64,000 nt of DNA, taken from IMG/VR virus record IMGVR_UViG_2690316121_000006. One strand, 5' to 3'. This stretch comes from a virus. Lineage: Duplodnaviria > Heunggongvirae > Uroviricota > Caudoviricetes. The notes beneath the pieces were generated by a model that had not been told where the DNA came from, made no database searches, and worked only from the letters and a program-made list of their open reading frames with translations. Both the position numbers and the translations under genes were made by a program. Below, piece after piece: positions 33,386-43,594 of this stretch (the stretch's first letter is position 1; the number at the start of each line of letters is the position of its first letter).

Positions 33386-33402
33386 AAATTTATTAGAGCA
33401 AA
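33386..33402 (-). promoter_or_regulatory. C1-type operator (16/17)
   Basis: Plus AAATTTATTAGAGCAAA; reverse strand reads TTTGCTCTAATAAATTT, about 70 bp upstream of the KilA-N gene start. Confidence 0.55.
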
Positions 33403-34742: not shown

Positions 34743-34794
34743 AGTTACGGCCTCACAATCAGGTTTAACAACCTGCTACCCGCTGCTAAACAGG

Positions 34795-34875
34795 TGGCAG
34801 GACGTGACGGGGTTAGCAGACTGGCGATTGTGAAACCAGCAGGCCGAAGCCTCCCCATCACGCCCCACCATAATT
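34795..34875 (-). ncRNA. candidate c4-like antisense RNA (boundaries approximate)
   Basis: ORF-free leader containing a GGCUUCGGCC tetraloop hairpin and a UCUGCUAAC element complementary to GUUUAGCAG repeats that flank it upstream and just before the small ORF. Confidence 0.3.
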
Positions 34876-35056
34876 TGGGCGTAACGCGGTTTTACGGACA
34901 CAAAAATACCGCAATATCGGATATCTGCGGCTGTCCGCACAATCATTCAGGCTGCTAAACCCGGTCGCAGAATTTGCTACGACAGCGGAACTATAAGCCT
35001 GAACGATTAAAAGGTCAATATGATGCGAAAAGATAGCATTCGCGACTTAAAAACAC

Positions 35057-35073
35057 AAATTTATTAGAGCATT
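35057..35073 (-). promoter_or_regulatory. C1-type operator (16/17), Op51-like
   Basis: Plus AAATTTATTAGAGCATT; sits at the head of the reverse immunity operon and 70-100 bp upstream of the forward AT-rich module. Confidence 0.55.
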
Positions 35074-35169
35074 GATTGTATAATAAATACACAAATGGAG
35101 CTAATAACCTCTTTTTTTTAAAGGCGAAAATATGTACCCTAAATGGGGTATAAGGCAGGTGAGGTTTTA

Positions 35170-35808
35170 ATGAGAAAACTATTACTACCGTTATTATTTA
35201 TGGCTGGGACTGTTAATGCAGCATCAAGTGTAAAGGAGATTTGTACAGATTATACGAAATACCTTGGGCACGTTTACGGTTTCACTGTCAGTCAGGACGG
35301 CAAAATGAAAAAAGCTCTCCAGAATGATATGACACGCTTAAGTTTGTCTGAAGCAATGGTTCAGCAAGAAATGTATAAGGTTGCGACAGATGATGCTGCA
35401 AAAATGTATTATTCGAAATTTCTTAATCCTAATCTTAATGAATATAACCGTTCGGCTTTTAATCAGATGGTAGCGTATTGTGAAACTGCACCAGATATGA
35501 TGATTCCTAGTTGGGCTGTATTAGTGGCTAATGGAAAAATTCGCAAAGAAGACCAAGGAAAATCTTTAAGTAGCTATATAAATAGCGAACAATTTCTGAA
35601 TGCGCGTGGCATGCGTACTCAAAATACTCAAGGTGCGCTTGAGCGGAGGGCTTTAGGGATCGCTGATACAAATGATACTGATAATTTGCCCCCTGGAATA
35701 AAAAAATGTGTTGAAACTAAGTTAGCTCTAATGAAACGGGACAGCCCTAACATTCCTGTTTCACAACTTACCGCTACGGCAACTAGTCTCTGCAAAGACG
35801 GGCTTTAA
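35170..35808 (+). CDS. secreted protein, unknown function
   Basis: Start MRKLLLPLLFMAGTVNA-A (Sec signal) with AGGTGAGG RBS; ORF track begins 27 nt earlier; AT-rich codon usage. Confidence 0.5.
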   Translation: MRKLLLPLLFMAGTVNAASSVKEICTDYTKYLGHVYGFTVSQDGKMKKALQNDMTRLSLSEAMVQQEMYKVATDDAAKMYYSKFLNPNLNEYNRSAFNQMVAYCETAPDMMIPSWAVLVANGKIRKEDQGKSLSSYINSEQFLNARGMRTQNTQGALERRALGIADTNDTDNLPPGIKKCVETKLALMKRDSPNIPVSQLTATATSLCKDGL

Positions 35809-35872
35809 ATGTAAAGATATTCGAAGAAATGTTATTTTAAGGCGTTTTATCTGTGACTGGAGATAGCTAATC

Positions 35873-36223
35873 ATGTCATCTGAACATGTTCGTAAAGGTG
35901 TAACAAATGCGAAATTCAATGAAGAGCAATCTAATATTCTCTTTATTGAAATAGGAATTCTGTCAATACTGATAGGTTTAATGTCTAGATCATGGTGGGC
36001 CTTTGGCGGTTCTTTTCTTGGACTGATTTTTAGTTTAAGAATAAAATTTCTGGCAATACCATTGATGATTGTCTTTAGCTTAGTATGGGGAGCTATTGGC
36101 TATAGTATTGGTACTTTGTTTGAATCAACAGCAGCAAGTATTGTTTTGGGGGTAATTGCTTTCCTGAGTGGCTTGGGTACTCATTTTGCTGCCGTGCAAT
36201 GGGCAAATGATATTGCAGAATAG
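35873..36223 (+). CDS. small polytopic inner-membrane protein
   Basis: 116 aa, three or four hydrophobic helices. Confidence 0.5.
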   Translation: MSSEHVRKGVTNAKFNEEQSNILFIEIGILSILIGLMSRSWWAFGGSFLGLIFSLRIKFLAIPLMIVFSLVWGAIGYSIGTLFESTAASIVLGVIAFLSGLGTHFAAVQWANDIAE

Positions 36224-36245
36224 TTACAGATAAGAAGCGAAAAGA

Positions 36246-36722
36246 ATGAATATGAGATGGTTTTTATTATTTGTATCGTTAGTTTCAGCAGGATCATTTG
36301 CAAAAGTTGATCCTCTACAATGGAATGTAATTGAAGAGAGAGGGGGAAGAGAATATACAATCCATAATCATAATGGTGATAAGATAAGTTTTTTATGTGA
36401 TATGGGATTCATGTATGGTTCACCAGATAGTGCAGGTAGTTTAGGCTTGTTGCTAAGTTCGTCGAATAATAAAAAGGAGTATAATGCTGACAAGAATAAA
36501 ATAGTATTAACTATAGATGGTGAGCAATATCCTTTTAGCAATCTTGGGTCAATGGTTGGAGATTCTTGGTGGTATGCCTTTTGGCAAGATGCAGCAGATT
36601 CAAATGCTAATATGATTGATGCTTATGTTGATAATGAAAAAATTGCTACATTCCCTCTTTCTGGGCTAAGTAAGTTGTATCAACAAGCCAAAATGGATGG
36701 ATGTATTAAACGGGGCAAATGA
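36246..36722 (+). CDS. secreted protein, unknown function
   Basis: 158 aa; N-terminal MNMRWFLLFVSLVSAGSFA signal peptide. Confidence 0.5.
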   Translation: MNMRWFLLFVSLVSAGSFAKVDPLQWNVIEERGGREYTIHNHNGDKISFLCDMGFMYGSPDSAGSLGLLLSSSNNKKEYNADKNKIVLTIDGEQYPFSNLGSMVGDSWWYAFWQDAADSNANMIDAYVDNEKIATFPLSGLSKLYQQAKMDGCIKRGK

Positions 36723-36763
36723 TCTTTCTGTGTTAAAGACTAACGCAACCAATAAAACATTGG

Positions 36764-37831
36764 TTGCGTAATATTCTATTATATAGATGGAATAATATGA
36801 CCAAAATTACTAATTCTAATGAGTTGGAGTTACTGTACAAACAGTCAGTAATCATTCCATCATACAAAGATCACGTAGCGATTTTGCAAAAACAATTAGG
36901 AATAGAAAAATATTCTTTTCAAAATATGACAAGATTGAATAGACAAGCTGTAATTAGTAACTCTCTTCGGAAACAATTGGCTAGTATGCCGAACTTGGCT
37001 GGAATAGGCAGCAAGTATCGTGAACATATCGCGATTTTACAGAAACAGACTCAGGCTCTTTTTCCTCATGACGCAAATAAATACATTCAAATGCTAAGGA
37101 AACAGGCAGAAATTGCTATGCCGTTGCGAAACCAGTTAGAGATACTTAATAAACAGGCTGGTTTAAATAACATGCAGGCGATGCTTAATGAATTAAGACA
37201 ACATGTAAATTATAAGACAGATTTTAATAATGGAATAGCACTATTATTAAAACAATATACTCTGGCAAAAGGTTCTCCATTGCATCAAGTAATGGAGCAA
37301 GGTCTTTCATCTATTGCACAGGCTTATGCTGAAGGTGCTACTGAAACATCACACACGAAAAGTAATGTTCAAAATAAAGGATTAAATAAATATAGCTCAA
37401 AGTTTGTTGATTCATTTAAAGAGCTTCCTTATCCACTGCAATGGTTACTAATGGTTATATTTTCTCAAGTTGTGTTTGGTGCTTTTATTGATTACGGAAA
37501 AGAGAAAACCTTGCTGGGAATACACAAGGCAGAATCATATGTTATATCGCTGTTTGAGGATAAACCAATATCAAAACAACAAATAATTAAAGAAAACAAA
37601 GAAATTAGTTGGGAAGATCTCAATGGTTTTCGTTTTATAACTGGTGAGAACGTAAGATTACACGTCAGTCCGTCTATAAATAGTGAGGTTATTGAATGCA
37701 TTGGCAAAAATACTATAGTGGCTGTTTTAGATAAAAAAGATCGCCAATGGCTTTTCGTGCAGGTTAAATCAGGGGACGAGTTTATTACTGGATGGATTAC
37801 ACGAACATACACAAAGCCTCTTAAGGCTTGA
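36764..37831 (+). CDS. repeat-TM-SH3b-like protein
   Basis: 355 aa: about 22-aa periodic repeats with LxKQ cores, one TM helix (LQWLLMVIFSQVVFGAFIDYG), C-terminal bacterial SH3-like segment (...VRLHVSPS...GDEFITGWITRTYTKPL). Confidence 0.5.
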   Translation: MRNILLYRWNNMTKITNSNELELLYKQSVIIPSYKDHVAILQKQLGIEKYSFQNMTRLNRQAVISNSLRKQLASMPNLAGIGSKYREHIAILQKQTQALFPHDANKYIQMLRKQAEIAMPLRNQLEILNKQAGLNNMQAMLNELRQHVNYKTDFNNGIALLLKQYTLAKGSPLHQVMEQGLSSIAQAYAEGATETSHTKSNVQNKGLNKYSSKFVDSFKELPYPLQWLLMVIFSQVVFGAFIDYGKEKTLLGIHKAESYVISLFEDKPISKQQIIKENKEISWEDLNGFRFITGENVRLHVSPSINSEVIECIGKNTIVAVLDKKDRQWLFVQVKSGDEFITGWITRTYTKPLKA

Positions 37832-37928
37832 ATTTTATCACCGTATCTTGGGGCTGGTTGTTGATGACGATGTGCTACTTGACGTACTTGAGTTTTTTAA
37901 CGCAGCATCTGAAATGTGCAGACTGACC

Positions 37929-38551
<623 letters not shown>

Positions 38552-40150: not shown

Positions 40151-43100
40151 ATGGAACGAAAAAACGCCAACATTGACGATGTTATAAGGACAGTTGAAAC
40201 CGCCAGCGCAAAAGAGCTGGAAGAGCTTGCAGGTATCCGGGAAGCTGTTGAAGATTTGAAAGGGGGGCGCGTTGCAACTGTTGATCCTGTCTCTCGCAGT
40301 GTGTCGGCATTAAATCGCACAATCGAAAATTCACGGCCAGACTTTGTGGCCAATGCGCCATCAGTGGACCCTATTGTTGAGGCAATGAAACGGCTTAACT
40401 TAGGGGACGTTTCTCGTGTAGTTCAGGAAGATGTTGCTCAACAGGAACAGCGGGCCAAATCAACCACACCAAAGGGTAAAAAACGACGCAGGAAGGCTAT
40501 ACCAGAGGATGTAAAGGCACAACGGACCGAAGCAGCCGAACACGCTCGCGAAATGTTCGGTCAAAAAGGCGGTGCGCAAAAAAGCCAAAACCAACGCGAT
40601 GCGCGTGGTCGTTTTATTGGGAAGTCAGGGAGTAAGGCCGCAGCGGAAGATGCCCGTGCTGAACGTGCTGAAAAAGCTAGGCGCAAAGAGGATGATGAGC
40701 GTCTAAATGCTGAATCGGGTTTATTAAAAAAACTGTCAAAAGTAGCTGAAGGCATAGGTAACCCTTCAGAGACTCGTGCCGTCGATGCTTTAGGTTATGC
40801 CGTTGCTGGTCCATTGTGGGCAGCAGGAAAGGAGCTTGGCGGAATATCAAAAGAAGTTGGCGGTTCGCTTAATGGTGCCAGAAAGTCAATTGCCGATGTG
40901 ATTCGTGGCAATGACGATAACAGCCGTAGAAAAGGTTTTTTTAGGCGTAAATCGCAAAGTAGTGCCGATGTCGTTCAGGTTAACACCCAAAAACGGACGG
41001 TTCAGGAACTTCAGGATCAGACCAGCGAAATTAAAGAGGGCAATGACAAGATTCTCAGCGCCCTTGATCAGATAGCCAAAAACACCGGGAAAAAGAAGGG
41101 CGGCTTGCTGTCCAAATTATTTAGCCTGTTAGGGAAGGGGGCCGGTGGTATTGCTTCCCTTATTTTTGGCCGTGGGGCACTAAAGAAAGTTGGCTCGATG
41201 GCACTAGGCGCTTTAGGTATAAAAAAAGTTGCAAGCTTATTGGGCTTTGGTGGGAAAAAAGCTGCTGCCAAAGAAGCTGGCGAATTGGCTACTCGCGGTG
41301 CCGGAAAACTTGCAACTAAGGGATTGGAGAAACTAGGTGTTAAGGCTTTTGCAAAGGGGGCTTTACGCGCAATTCCGCTAGTCGGCACGGTGGCTGGAGG
41401 TATCTATGATGCGGTAACCGGTTGGAATGATACAGAAGCACAACGTCGGACCTTTGGGCTTAAGGATGGGGAAGATCCATCTTTTCAGCAAAAAGCGGCT
41501 TATACACTGGCTAACGTTCTCGATATGGGAGGACTGGTATCTGGTATTAGCAATGCCATTGGTGGCGTTCTCAAATCACTTGGATTTGAGGATATCGGCA
41601 ATATGTTGCAATCATTTTCGACGGAAAGTATTGCCCAGGCCATTGATAGTGGGATTACCAATTTAGAAACATATATTTCTAACCTTGGTGACACCATATC
41701 CACAACATTCAACGATTACACAGCCAAGATTGGCGATGCTATTTCAGCCTGGTTCAGTGACACAACCAAGAGTCTGAACGAAAAATTAGACGCCATCAAA
41801 GACTTCTTTACTGTCGATAACCTGAAAAAGGTTTTCAGTGATGCAATTGATAGTGCAATTGATTTCATTAAGAACCCGGGAAAATACATTAAAGAGGCTG
41901 GTAGTAATCTATGGAATGCCGCAAAAGAGCTTCCTGGTAAGGTTGCCGATGCCGCTGTTCAGAGCACCCCTGTGGCCTGGGTTGCATCAAAGCTAGTCAA
42001 CAAAGCGGATGCGAAAGAGGTTACACCTGAATTAAAAACACCAGCTAAAGAAAGTCAGGAGGACAATGCTCCTAAGACTGAATATACCCCTAAAAAGGCT
42101 AATATTGTCACTCGTGTTGTAAATGCATCCCTAGAGACGGCGAAAGATAGCAATAAAACAGTTAAAGAAACTGCCAATCAGATTATCAATGCAAATGCCG
42201 TAGAAACGGGCAATCGAGCGTTGCAGAAAATTGATAATGCTATTGGTCAAAATAGCTCATCATCATCGTCGCTTAATACTACTGGCACTAGGAATGACAT
42301 TCAGAAAGCTGCGGATACCTACAACAATGGCAACTTAGATGTAAAAGTCGGAAGCCTTGGCGCTGAAGGTAAGGCAAATCTGGATAAGCTGGCTCCGTAT
42401 TTTGCTGAACTAGAGAATAAATATGGCCTTCCTGAAGGCACTCTTTACTCGATTGCGGCAACTGAATCAGGAGGGGATCCTAACGCAAAGTCTCCGCTTA
42501 CAAGATCACCAGATGGAAAGTTAAGTGGTGGCGCACTCGGGATGTTCCAGTTCACGAGTATTGCTCGTAAAGAGACAGGGATATCGGAACAGGATGCTTT
42601 TGATCCTGTGAAATCGGCAGAAGCTGCGGCTCTTCTCATGAGCAAGTATCTGAAGCAAGCCAATGGAGACTTAAACGAGGCCATCACTGCATATAACGCT
42701 GGGTTTGGCACTATTAATAAGTGGAAAAAAGGCACAGGTGACTTATCGAAAGAAAACCGTGAGTACGCGATCAAGGTCAATACTCATCGTGCTCGCTATT
42801 TAGGTGGTGAAATCTATACACCTAGAGCAGGAACACAAGGGGGAAGACCGCAACAAAGTGGCCAATCACCAAGAATGGATAACCTTCCTGAAAACGCCTT
42901 TGTTGATCAGTCTACGGGCCTGGCGTTTACCCCTGGCCAAAATCCGTTTGAAAAAGGGGGATTAGTAGACCGGATTGGTGAACTTACGGGGGTGAACGAT
43001 CTGGCCAGCAAATTCCTGAATGGCCGGGGTATGCGTCGGGAAGTCGTTCAGGGAACGCTCGAAGAACGTGCACGAGGAAGGGGAACCGCAACGGCAGCTG

Positions 43101-43594
43101 GCAATGTGTATGTTGATACACCTATGCCAGTTGAAGAGGCACGTCCGGTGGCCAACAACTCAAGTTACTTTGACCAGCTCGGCGCACAAATGGGGATTGA
43201 TGGACTGTATGACAAACTCATTAATGCCCGGGGAATGCGCTCAAATAATTCTCCTCAACCAGCTTCCACGTCCCAGATGACGACTGTCGCCAACGATTTG
43301 CAGCAACCAACCGGTCGTATGCAGATAGACGGACAGGTTATTAGTGACCTTGGCGGCTCCGGTGCCAAGCCGACAATGCAGTTGGCTGATAATACCGTTT
43401 CACTTGATGGTGAAACGAAGCGGCTGTTTGCGCAGATGACCTCATTGCTTGCCAGGATTGAAGAGCACACTAAAGACTCGGCGAAAGGCCAGGGAACTGT
43501 CGTAAAGGTCAGCACGCCTCAACCGGGCGTTATGCGCACGGTGCCACTGTCAATTGATGATCCGTTGATGAATGACTACGCGAGAGTTGATTGA
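40151..43594 (+). CDS. large virion protein with soluble lytic transglycosylase domain (tape-measure/injection type, Sit-like)
   Basis: 1147 aa; Gly-rich hydrophobic middle; SLT signature ...TESGGDPNAKS...GALGMFQF...AITAYNAG... near residue 770. Confidence 0.75.
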   Translation: MERKNANIDDVIRTVETASAKELEELAGIREAVEDLKGGRVATVDPVSRSVSALNRTIENSRPDFVANAPSVDPIVEAMKRLNLGDVSRVVQEDVAQQEQRAKSTTPKGKKRRRKAIPEDVKAQRTEAAEHAREMFGQKGGAQKSQNQRDARGRFIGKSGSKAAAEDARAERAEKARRKEDDERLNAESGLLKKLSKVAEGIGNPSETRAVDALGYAVAGPLWAAGKELGGISKEVGGSLNGARKSIADVIRGNDDNSRRKGFFRRKSQSSADVVQVNTQKRTVQELQDQTSEIKEGNDKILSALDQIAKNTGKKKGGLLSKLFSLLGKGAGGIASLIFGRGALKKVGSMALGALGIKKVASLLGFGGKKAAAKEAGELATRGAGKLATKGLEKLGVKAFAKGALRAIPLVGTVAGGIYDAVTGWNDTEAQRRTFGLKDGEDPSFQQKAAYTLANVLDMGGLVSGISNAIGGVLKSLGFEDIGNMLQSFSTESIAQAIDSGITNLETYISNLGDTISTTFNDYTAKIGDAISAWFSDTTKSLNEKLDAIKDFFTVDNLKKVFSDAIDSAIDFIKNPGKYIKEAGSNLWNAAKELPGKVADAAVQSTPVAWVASKLVNKADAKEVTPELKTPAKESQEDNAPKTEYTPKKANIVTRVVNASLETAKDSNKTVKETANQIINANAVETGNRALQKIDNAIGQNSSSSSSLNTTGTRNDIQKAADTYNNGNLDVKVGSLGAEGKANLDKLAPYFAELENKYGLPEGTLYSIAATESGGDPNAKSPLTRSPDGKLSGGALGMFQFTSIARKETGISEQDAFDPVKSAEAAALLMSKYLKQANGDLNEAITAYNAGFGTINKWKKGTGDLSKENREYAIKVNTHRARYLGGEIYTPRAGTQGGRPQQSGQSPRMDNLPENAFVDQSTGLAFTPGQNPFEKGGLVDRIGELTGVNDLASKFLNGRGMRREVVQGTLEERARGRGTATAAGNVYVDTPMPVEEARPVANNSSYFDQLGAQMGIDGLYDKLINARGMRSNNSPQPASTSQMTTVANDLQQPTGRMQIDGQVISDLGGSGAKPTMQLADNTVSLDGETKRLFAQMTSLLARIEEHTKDSAKGQGTVVKVSTPQPGVMRTVPLSIDDPLMNDYARVD

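Follow-up and report, generated by a model that had tools for sequence, protein, structure and literature searches.

The 64,000-nucleotide stretch analyzed here (the window; IMG/VR virus record IMGVR_UViG_2690316121_000006) is from a P1-like (Punavirus, IncY) phage-plasmid, and its block of four plus-strand open reading frames (ORF1–4) at positions 35170–37831, with products of 212, 116, 158, and 344 or 355 amino acids, fills the sim (superimmunity) accessory slot of that element. The cassette is a rare recombinant that combines a full-length simA-family gene with a three-gene block that often occurs by itself. The full-length SimA family, as newly recognized here from sequence comparison, appears to carry on a flexible linker a peptide that resembles a segment of Sit, the tape-measure protein of P1. 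We favor the reading that ORF1–4 may mediate superinfection exclusion of P1-like phages, and we put its probability at roughly 45%.

The cassette and the boundaries of the sim slot

The cassette and the elements that frame it are as follows.

34790–34875, minus strand: c4 antisense RNA (Rfam RF01695, 69.6 bits, above the gathering score), collinear with the P1 annotation
34944–34996, minus strand: a1b1 target element of the c4 RNA, immI operon (c4-icd-ant; Rfam RF03163, 54.2 bits, above the gathering score)
35057–35073, no strand assigned: 17-bp C1 operator Oc4/Op51, left slot boundary, AAATTTATTAGAGCATT, identical to the annotated P1 operator
35074–35169, plus strand: leader, equivalent of the predicted P1 PsimA promoter region (alignment with P1 and Ro157c2)
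35170–35808, plus strand: ORF1, full-length SimA-family periplasmic protein, 212 aa (PHROG 3933, 1.8e-86)
35873–36223, plus strand: ORF2, inner-membrane protein, 116 aa, with four hydrophobic segments (hydropathy, loop charges; PHROG 15014)
36246–36722, plus strand: ORF3, exported protein of the YfjT/YkfB family, 158 aa (similarity to K-12 YfjT; PHROG 3429)
36797–37831, plus strand: ORF4, single-transmembrane (TM) protein with a predicted SH3b C terminus, 344 aa from the PGAP ATG or 355 aa from a TTG at 36764
37935–37953, plus strand: late promoter LPsit, right slot boundary, AAATGACAACTCGTAGAAT, one base off the annotated P1 LPsit

Left of the slot, c4, icd, and ant1 lie on the minus strand, divergent from the block. 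This agrees with the original prediction, made from the letters of the window, which had described four co-directional forward ORFs diverging from the immunity operon at an operator; the start it gave, 35057, is the first base of AAATTTATTAGAGCATT. Right of LPsit come pmgC (start at 37985), tub, pmgB, and sit. In alignments, the slot variants diverge right at the operator, or past the 5′ end of simA where simA is kept, and all of them rejoin at about 37933, at the start of LPsit; the sequences of P7 and of a three-gene variant part from the window directly right of Oc4. Because the variants diverge at the operator and reconverge at about 37933, the slot can be delimited to 35074–37932, framed by two conserved regulatory elements. 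The original prediction had also allowed that the block might be the known sim locus of this phage family. By position it is, as the block lies between Oc4 with c4-icd-ant and LPsit with pmgC-tub-pmgB-sit, just as in P1, but the gene set differs, with simB and simC absent. Comparison with the reference genomes at sim/immI, which had been proposed as a check, revealed a gene order collinear with P1 and a slot occupied by simA-simB-simC in P1 and by upf50.5-upf50.0 in P7. In P1-like elements the slot has previously been described as variable and low in GC (PMC9603915), and the sim genes of P1 are not needed for lytic growth (PMC10695390).

The AT-richness of the block, first judged by eye, was confirmed by a windowed calculation. 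The GC content of 35074–37900 is 0.356, the lowest among all windows of the same size in the 64 kb, and non-overlapping windows of that size have a mean of 0.476 with a standard deviation of 0.022 and a minimum of 0.413. At third codon positions, GC content is 0.24–0.31 in the genes of the block versus 0.41–0.53 in the flanking genes. The ratio of nonsynonymous to synonymous substitution rates (dN/dS, omega) is 0.10 for ORF2, 0.12 for ORF3, and 0.36 for ORF4 relative to a 95%-identical relative, and 0.25 for ORF1 relative to a 65%-identical homolog; with values of 0.10–0.36, all four are real coding genes under purifying selection. Two Escherichia coli plasmids that are 100% identical across the block have these four genes in their RefSeq/PGAP annotation.

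Each of the four proteins has a signal peptide or membrane segments, as had been proposed; this was judged by rule-based reading and Kyte–Doolittle hydropathy rather than by a dedicated signal-peptide predictor. No functional match to ORF1–4 was found in PADLOC, Pfam, NCBIfam, PDB sequence searches, or fold searches. Pfam, NCBIfam, and PADLOC together returned only SH3_3 for the cassette proteins, PADLOC-DB matched neither ORF1–4 nor nine proteins of alternative cassettes, and no meaningful match came from searching PDB sequences with profiles of the ORF1, ORF3, and ORF4 families. We found no literature on the four proteins in a search that did not reach the Lobocka 2004 P1 genome paper. The original prediction had held that it would fall if GC content equaled that of the flanks or if the four proteins matched core genes of the family with assigned roles. 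GC content does differ and not all four match such genes.

ORF1 is a full-length SimA-family protein

The ORF1 ATG preceded by a Shine–Dalgarno sequence yields 212 aa, and a start at 35143 yields 221 aa. The N terminus, MRKLLLPLLFMAGTVNA/AS, reads as a Sec-type signal peptide (residues 1–17, rule-based). It is followed by a helical domain at about residues 20–130, in which Cys25 and Cys104 are invariant across the family, a presumably disordered linker, and a C-terminal helical hairpin at residues 167–209. The AlphaFold2 model has a mean predicted local distance difference test score (pLDDT) of 79, and residues 20–130 are all-helical with values above 90.

P1 SimA is related to the beginning of this protein. 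Residues 10–49 of P1 SimA are 92.5% identical to residues 1–40 of ORF1 over 40 aa, and P1 SimA matches positions 1–41 of PHROG 3933, the same profile that is matched by ORF1. At the nucleotide level, P1 is collinear with the full-length simA gene, of the Ro157c2 type, to about codon 50 (P1, L001, 2744–2960 versus 35140–35320 of the window), and the annotated start codon of P1 simB sits inside simA-derived sequence. The joint at the simB start marks the recombination point that made the stub, and the 52-aa P1 simA is the truncated 5′ remnant of a larger conserved periplasmic protein, a relationship that is new here. The ORF1 family comprises 28 homolog clusters. Clusters with a longest contig of near full length (about 90–97 kb) come from Escherichia, Salmonella, and Klebsiella and fit P1-like elements.

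A Sit-like peptide in the linker of ORF1

The segments that link ORF1 and Sit are located as follows.

35584–35658, plus strand: Sit-like motif, ORF1 aa 139–163, SEQFLNARGMRTQNTQGALERRALG (BLASTP against Sit)
40151–43594, plus strand: sit, tape-measure/injection transglycosylase gene (SLT domain at aa 750–869)
43013–43078, plus strand: Sit motif copy 1, aa 955–976, downstream of the SLT domain
43220–43249, plus strand: Sit motif copy 2, aa 1024–1033, downstream of the SLT domain

Residues 139–163 of ORF1 are 56% identical to residues 952–976 of Sit (ASKFLNGRGMRREVVQGTLEERARG; BLASTP, E = 1e-5) and also match the second copy in Sit (1021–1034). The ORF1 homolog of Ro157c2 is 63% identical to Sit over 30 aa (E = 3e-8). 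Translated in all six frames, the window contains the pattern N-x-[RP]-G-[MV]-R at only three places, two in Sit and one in ORF1. A profile built only from the ORF1 family placed Sit at the top of 1120 six-frame ORFs (E = 3e-5), and all full-length SimA (SimA-FL) variants tested match Sit and no other ORF of the window. The rarity of the motif, the rank of Sit in the profile search, and the match of every SimA-FL variant to Sit argue that the similarity is not due to chance. None of the other locus proteins tested, from the window and from other slot variants, showed a link to Sit or to any other ORF of the window.

Nearly all full-length family members keep the core N-x-x-G-M-R, in which Asn144 and Arg149 are invariant and Gly147 and Met148 nearly so. 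After the core comes either of two types of tail, one resembling Sit copy 1 and the other Sit copy 2. Where the peptides have identical residues, the codons mostly differ (10 of 14 and 10 of 17), implying that the peptide itself has been conserved; a recent DNA copy of, or gene conversion from, sit was rejected as the source of the motif on this ground. In the AlphaFold2 model, the motif lies in a low-confidence linker (pLDDT below 55) between two confident domains, and this linker is presumably disordered or flexible.

In Sit itself, copy 1 hardly varies among P1-like phages and is retained in Cronobacter phage JK004 (65% identity). Two forms of copy 2 occur in P1-like phages (INARGMRSNNSPQP versus RNSPGMRKNNAPEP), and JK004 lacks this copy. 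Sit is unresolved in a recent cryo-EM map of the P1 virion (PMC12810830). A covariation of the SimA and Sit motifs, suggested by two genomes (NARGMR with NARGMR and NSPGMR with NSPGMR), was rejected after it failed across 60 contigs.

Variants and distribution of the slot

We gathered 80 IMG/VR contigs through the C terminus of Sit, a sampling that is unbiased for slot content, and 62 of them had a complete slot. Their contents were as follows.

SimA-FL + YfjT-like: 19 of 62 contigs
simA stub + simB + simC (P1 type): 13 of 62 contigs
SimA-FL + YfjT-like + TM-SH3: 11 of 62 contigs
Upf50.5 + Upf50.0 (P7 type): 10 of 62 contigs
ORF2 + YfjT-like + TM-SH3: 5 of 62 contigs
ORF2 + YfjT-like + reversed DUF4760 gene: 2 of 62 contigs
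SimA-FL + SimC-like: 1 of 62 contigs
mosaic: 1 of 62 contigs
SimA-FL + ORF2 + YfjT-like + TM-SH3 (window): 0 of 62 contigs

The complete slots thus hold eight gene combinations other than that of the window, and the usual tenants are SimA-FL, YfjT-like, and TM-SH3 modules rather than simABC, which had not been recognized before. In PLSDB, the full ORF2–4 block is found in 27 plasmids, this ORF1 allele in only four, and the four genes together in three; five complete E. coli genomes have all four. It is the absence of the combination from the census, together with the few plasmids and genomes that hold it, that identifies the window cassette as a rare recombinant built from common modules. Every protein of the slot variants examined (SimA-FL, SimB, SimC, SimC-like, Upf50.5, DUF5384, YfjT-like, ORF2, TM-SH3, and DUF4760) has a signal peptide, a lipobox, or a TM segment.

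Two features of slot variants were also noted. In L009 (4402–5295, minus strand) and in L020–L023, the TM-SH3 gene is replaced by a convergent gene for a 297-aa DUF4760 membrane protein, which has no match in PADLOC. In the IMG/VR contigs L067 and L121, an extra unclassified 402-aa ORF separates the simA-family gene from the operator side and may be an insertion element.

Features of ORF2, ORF3, and ORF4

ORF2 is predicted to have both termini in the cytoplasm (probably N-in/C-in), and its family consists of only 13 homolog clusters. Orphan copies with 58–65% identity occur in Vibrio and metagenome chromosomes.

The N terminus of ORF3 (…VSAGSFA/KV) reads as a Sec-type signal by the same rules. 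ORF3 is 28% identical to E. coli K-12 YfjT (E = 1e-9, BLASTP against a small database), with intermediates bridging the two, and it carries the family-conserved positions Trp26, Cys51, Trp109, and Cys153 in the alignment. PGAP names a protein identical to ORF3 in RefSeq as YfjT/YkfB family, and ORF3 had no match in the local NCBIfam release. The family is small, with only 22 representatives in a library of 1.8 billion proteins and two loci in scans of GTDB representative genomes. The K-12 proteins YfjT and YkfB, from the cryptic prophages CP4-57 and CP4-6, resemble ORF3 in their length of about 155 aa, their signal peptide, and their conserved Trp and Cys residues. In both settings the family member stands beside other envelope proteins, but its partners differ: ORF3 is accompanied by ORF2 and TM-SH3, whereas yfjT in CP4-57 is preceded by ypjK (small membrane protein) and yfjS (lipoprotein).

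Other chromosomal neighborhoods were also noted. Non-phage ORF2 homologs of about 65% identity (L140 439–1608 and L141 2–955) lie 13 nt downstream of a DUF4431 gene or a 195-aa ORF, a two-gene arrangement reminiscent of effector/immunity pairs. In an Enterobacter sp. (L012 3581–4444), a chromosomal YfjT-like gene directly follows a gene for a 116-aa protein with two TM segments, and ORFs read by eye as hcp-like and clpV-like genes of a type VI secretion system (T6SS) lie within 2 kb of it.

ORF4 consists of a helical N-terminal region with [ILM]L[QRN]KQ repeats (residues 1–210), a single TM segment at about residues 214–231 (nt 37436–37489), and a predicted SH3b domain at residues 285–338 (nt 37649–37810). 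Its match to Pfam SH3_3 (26.0 bits, E = 1.1e-5) falls 1 bit short of the gathering threshold of 27 bits, and SH3_3 is matched at E < 1e-3 by all 31 aligned family members, with a best value of 2.3e-9. The family forms 48 clusters, in which near-full-length contigs again have the size of P1-like elements. Its TM and SH3b segments are nearly invariant, and the N-terminal repeat region varies in length and sequence, with a synonymous rate (dS) sevenfold above that of the rest of the gene. AlphaFold2 with 31 homologs gave a model with a pLDDT of 44, which is too poor for a fold search.

Possible functions of the cassette

Exclusion or defense, the function suggested by the original prediction, is plausible for ORF1–4 because the cassette takes the sim position, because all alternative cassettes encode exported or membrane proteins, and because ORF1 shares a motif with Sit. 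Devlin et al. (1982) and Maillou and Dreiseikelmann (1990) reportedly found that Sim of P1, a periplasmic protein, excludes superinfecting phage after adsorption and before the DNA enters. By analogy, we propose that the cassette would be expressed from the prophage and its products placed in the periplasm and inner membrane, where they could interfere with incoming P1-like phages at that same stage. The flexible linker of ORF1 may display a mimic of a conserved segment of the C-terminal region of Sit, and this mimic could compete with that segment for its binding partner during injection. The proposed site of action of ORF2–4 is the interface of peptidoglycan and inner membrane, with ORF3 in the periplasm, ORF2 as a polytopic membrane protein, and ORF4 anchored in the membrane, its SH3b domain probably periplasmic. 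A more specific version, in which full-length SimA is a periplasmic decoy that titrates a host or phage partner needed by Sit to open the path for DNA, seems to us unlikely as a claim of its own; if it held, it would represent a decoy principle of superinfection exclusion that has not been described before, the simA of reference P1 would be a dead remnant, and the YfjT/YkfB family, two E. coli K-12 genes included, would belong to the same group of proteins that block entry.

Several observations weigh against superinfection exclusion. SimC, the sole gene of the locus with an exclusion phenotype, is absent from the block. The slot promoter that would drive the cassette is a prediction, and the topology of ORF4 is ambiguous by the positive-inside rule. 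The common NAPGMR allele of SimA is paired with both Sit types, so that covariation between SimA and Sit copy 2 is not clean. Moreover, genes of the YfjT and ORF2 families also occur outside P1-like phages, in K-12 cryptic prophages, on an Enterobacter chromosome near T6SS genes, and in Vibrio, which implies that their role need not be P1-specific.

These same occurrences lend some weight to lysogenic conversion, in which the cassette would guard or remodel the host envelope against other threats such as pore-forming colicins, T6SS or peptidoglycan-targeting effectors, or serum. Both ORF2, small and polytopic, and ORF3, in the periplasm, would then be of the immunity type. At 116 aa and with four TM segments, ORF2 has the size and topology of small membrane immunity proteins, and its non-phage homologs sit in a pair-like position directly downstream of DUF4431 or the 195-aa ORF. 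The Enterobacter YfjT-like gene follows a small membrane protein near candidate T6SS genes (read by eye), the YfjT family stands beside a lipoprotein and a small membrane protein in the K-12 cryptic prophages, and the P7 cassette includes a weakly TraT-like lipoprotein. However, these supporting associations are single examples, no Pfam match to a colicin-immunity or T6SS-immunity family was obtained, and a conversion function leaves both the Sit-like motif of ORF1 and the known sim phenotype at this slot unexplained. We regard lysogenic conversion as a rather doubtful alternative.

Defense of the abortive-infection type against unrelated phages is improbable. In this view ORF4 would detect envelope events with its SH3b domain and pass on the signal by way of the variable repeats in the cytoplasm, as its nearly invariant TM and SH3b segments, its highly variable repeats, and the sevenfold higher N-terminal dS might suggest, and defense genes are often found in accessory slots of prophages. 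However, no cassette protein, alternative partners included, matched PADLOC, no enzymatic or toxin domain is present in the cassette, and the N-terminal variability of ORF4 looks like mosaic recombination (high dS, omega of 0.36) rather than positive selection.

On the established P1 map, the lysis genes lie away from the sim slot. A part in the phage's own lytic cycle, through read-through with the late tail operon and aid to lysis, release, or peptidoglycan handling, or by stopping progeny from injecting into lysing cells, is the least probable of the functions considered: although the cassette lies on the same strand as and immediately upstream of pmgC-tub-pmgB-sit, only weak terminator-like hairpins stand between it and LPsit, and SH3b domains, which could serve here to bind the cell wall, are common in lysis modules (PMC13164509), the content of the slot is freely exchangeable in the census and non-essential in P1 (PMC10695390), and LPsit downstream of the cassette provides late transcription without need for it.

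Comparison with known systems

The closest counterpart of the cassette is simA-simB-simC of P1, which shares with it the slot between Oc4 and LPsit, the strand, the low GC content, and the exported nature of the products. The leader and the first 135–150 nt or so are common to both, and ORF1 is homologous to simA. However, simB and simC are replaced in the window by unrelated genes, and the 52-aa simA stub of P1 contrasts with the intact 212-aa ORF1. Neither SimB, SimC, Upf50.5, nor Upf50.0 is similar to any of ORF1–4, a result obtained for SimC with both BLASTP and PHROG. A SimC-like gene of 35% identity is present in variant L008 and not in the window. Likewise, the Upf50.5/Upf50.0 pair of P7 occupies the same slot and encodes exported proteins, whereas its sequences, a weakly TraT-like glycine-zipper lipoprotein (Upf50.5) and a DUF5384 protein, are unrelated to ORF1–4. 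Upf50.5 (L002 2956–3477) has a sub-threshold TraT match (E = 7e-5) in addition to its glycine-zipper match. TraT is a surface-exclusion and serum-resistance lipoprotein.

Outside the P1 group, Ltp of TP-J34 and gp15 of HK97 are reported to be exclusion proteins that act at the membrane on the tape-measure protein of the incoming phage (PMC3952083). Like the product of ORF1, which is linked by sequence to Sit, they are prophage envelope proteins proposed to block DNA entry via the tape-measure protein. However, they have no sequence or fold similarity to ORF1 and are thought to be binders, whereas ORF1 resembles a piece of the tape measure itself and may thus be a mimic. Spackle (Sp) and Imm of T4, a small periplasmic and a membrane protein, block superinfection at the peptidoglycan/inner-membrane step, much as is proposed for the cassette. 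Following the Spackle comparison, it is conceivable that the SLT lytic transglycosylase domain of Sit is the target.

The window holds a rare gene combination in an accessory hot spot that is already known. Reference P1 has shaped expectations at the sim locus, and the census places its gene set in a minority (13 of 62). P1-like phage-plasmids matched in 463 of 5426 complete E. coli genomes (about 8%), and such elements spread resistance genes. If the cassette blocks entry, slot cassettes would determine which P1-like elements coexist with or displace each other, the K-12 genes yfjT and ykfB, whose function is unknown, would gain a first functional handle, and the motif common to ORF1 and Sit would point to the step that takes P1 DNA across the periplasm and inner membrane. 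If entry is not blocked, the cassette would be just a further group of envelope "moron" genes at a hot spot already known.

Regulatory elements within and around the cassette

The leader contains TATAAT at 35079–35084, GCTAAT at 35100–35105, and a GGTGAGG ribosome-binding site ahead of ORF1, and is predicted from these elements to act as a promoter; a consensus promoter scan called no clear plus-strand promoter beside Oc4. One further element lies within the cassette.

36743–36769, no strand assigned: stem-loop of 11–12 bp with a free energy of about −17 kcal/mol, at the ORF3/ORF4 junction

This stem-loop is possibly a terminator or attenuator. In mosaics with another third gene, the ORF2–ORF3 block ends just upstream of it. 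The DUF4760 variant L009 has a different hairpin at the corresponding position.

The core of the C1 operator, AAATTTATTAGAGCA, has two more exact matches in the window, at 13792–13806 and 33386–33400. The latter lies upstream of kilA, where P1 has OrepL/Op53.

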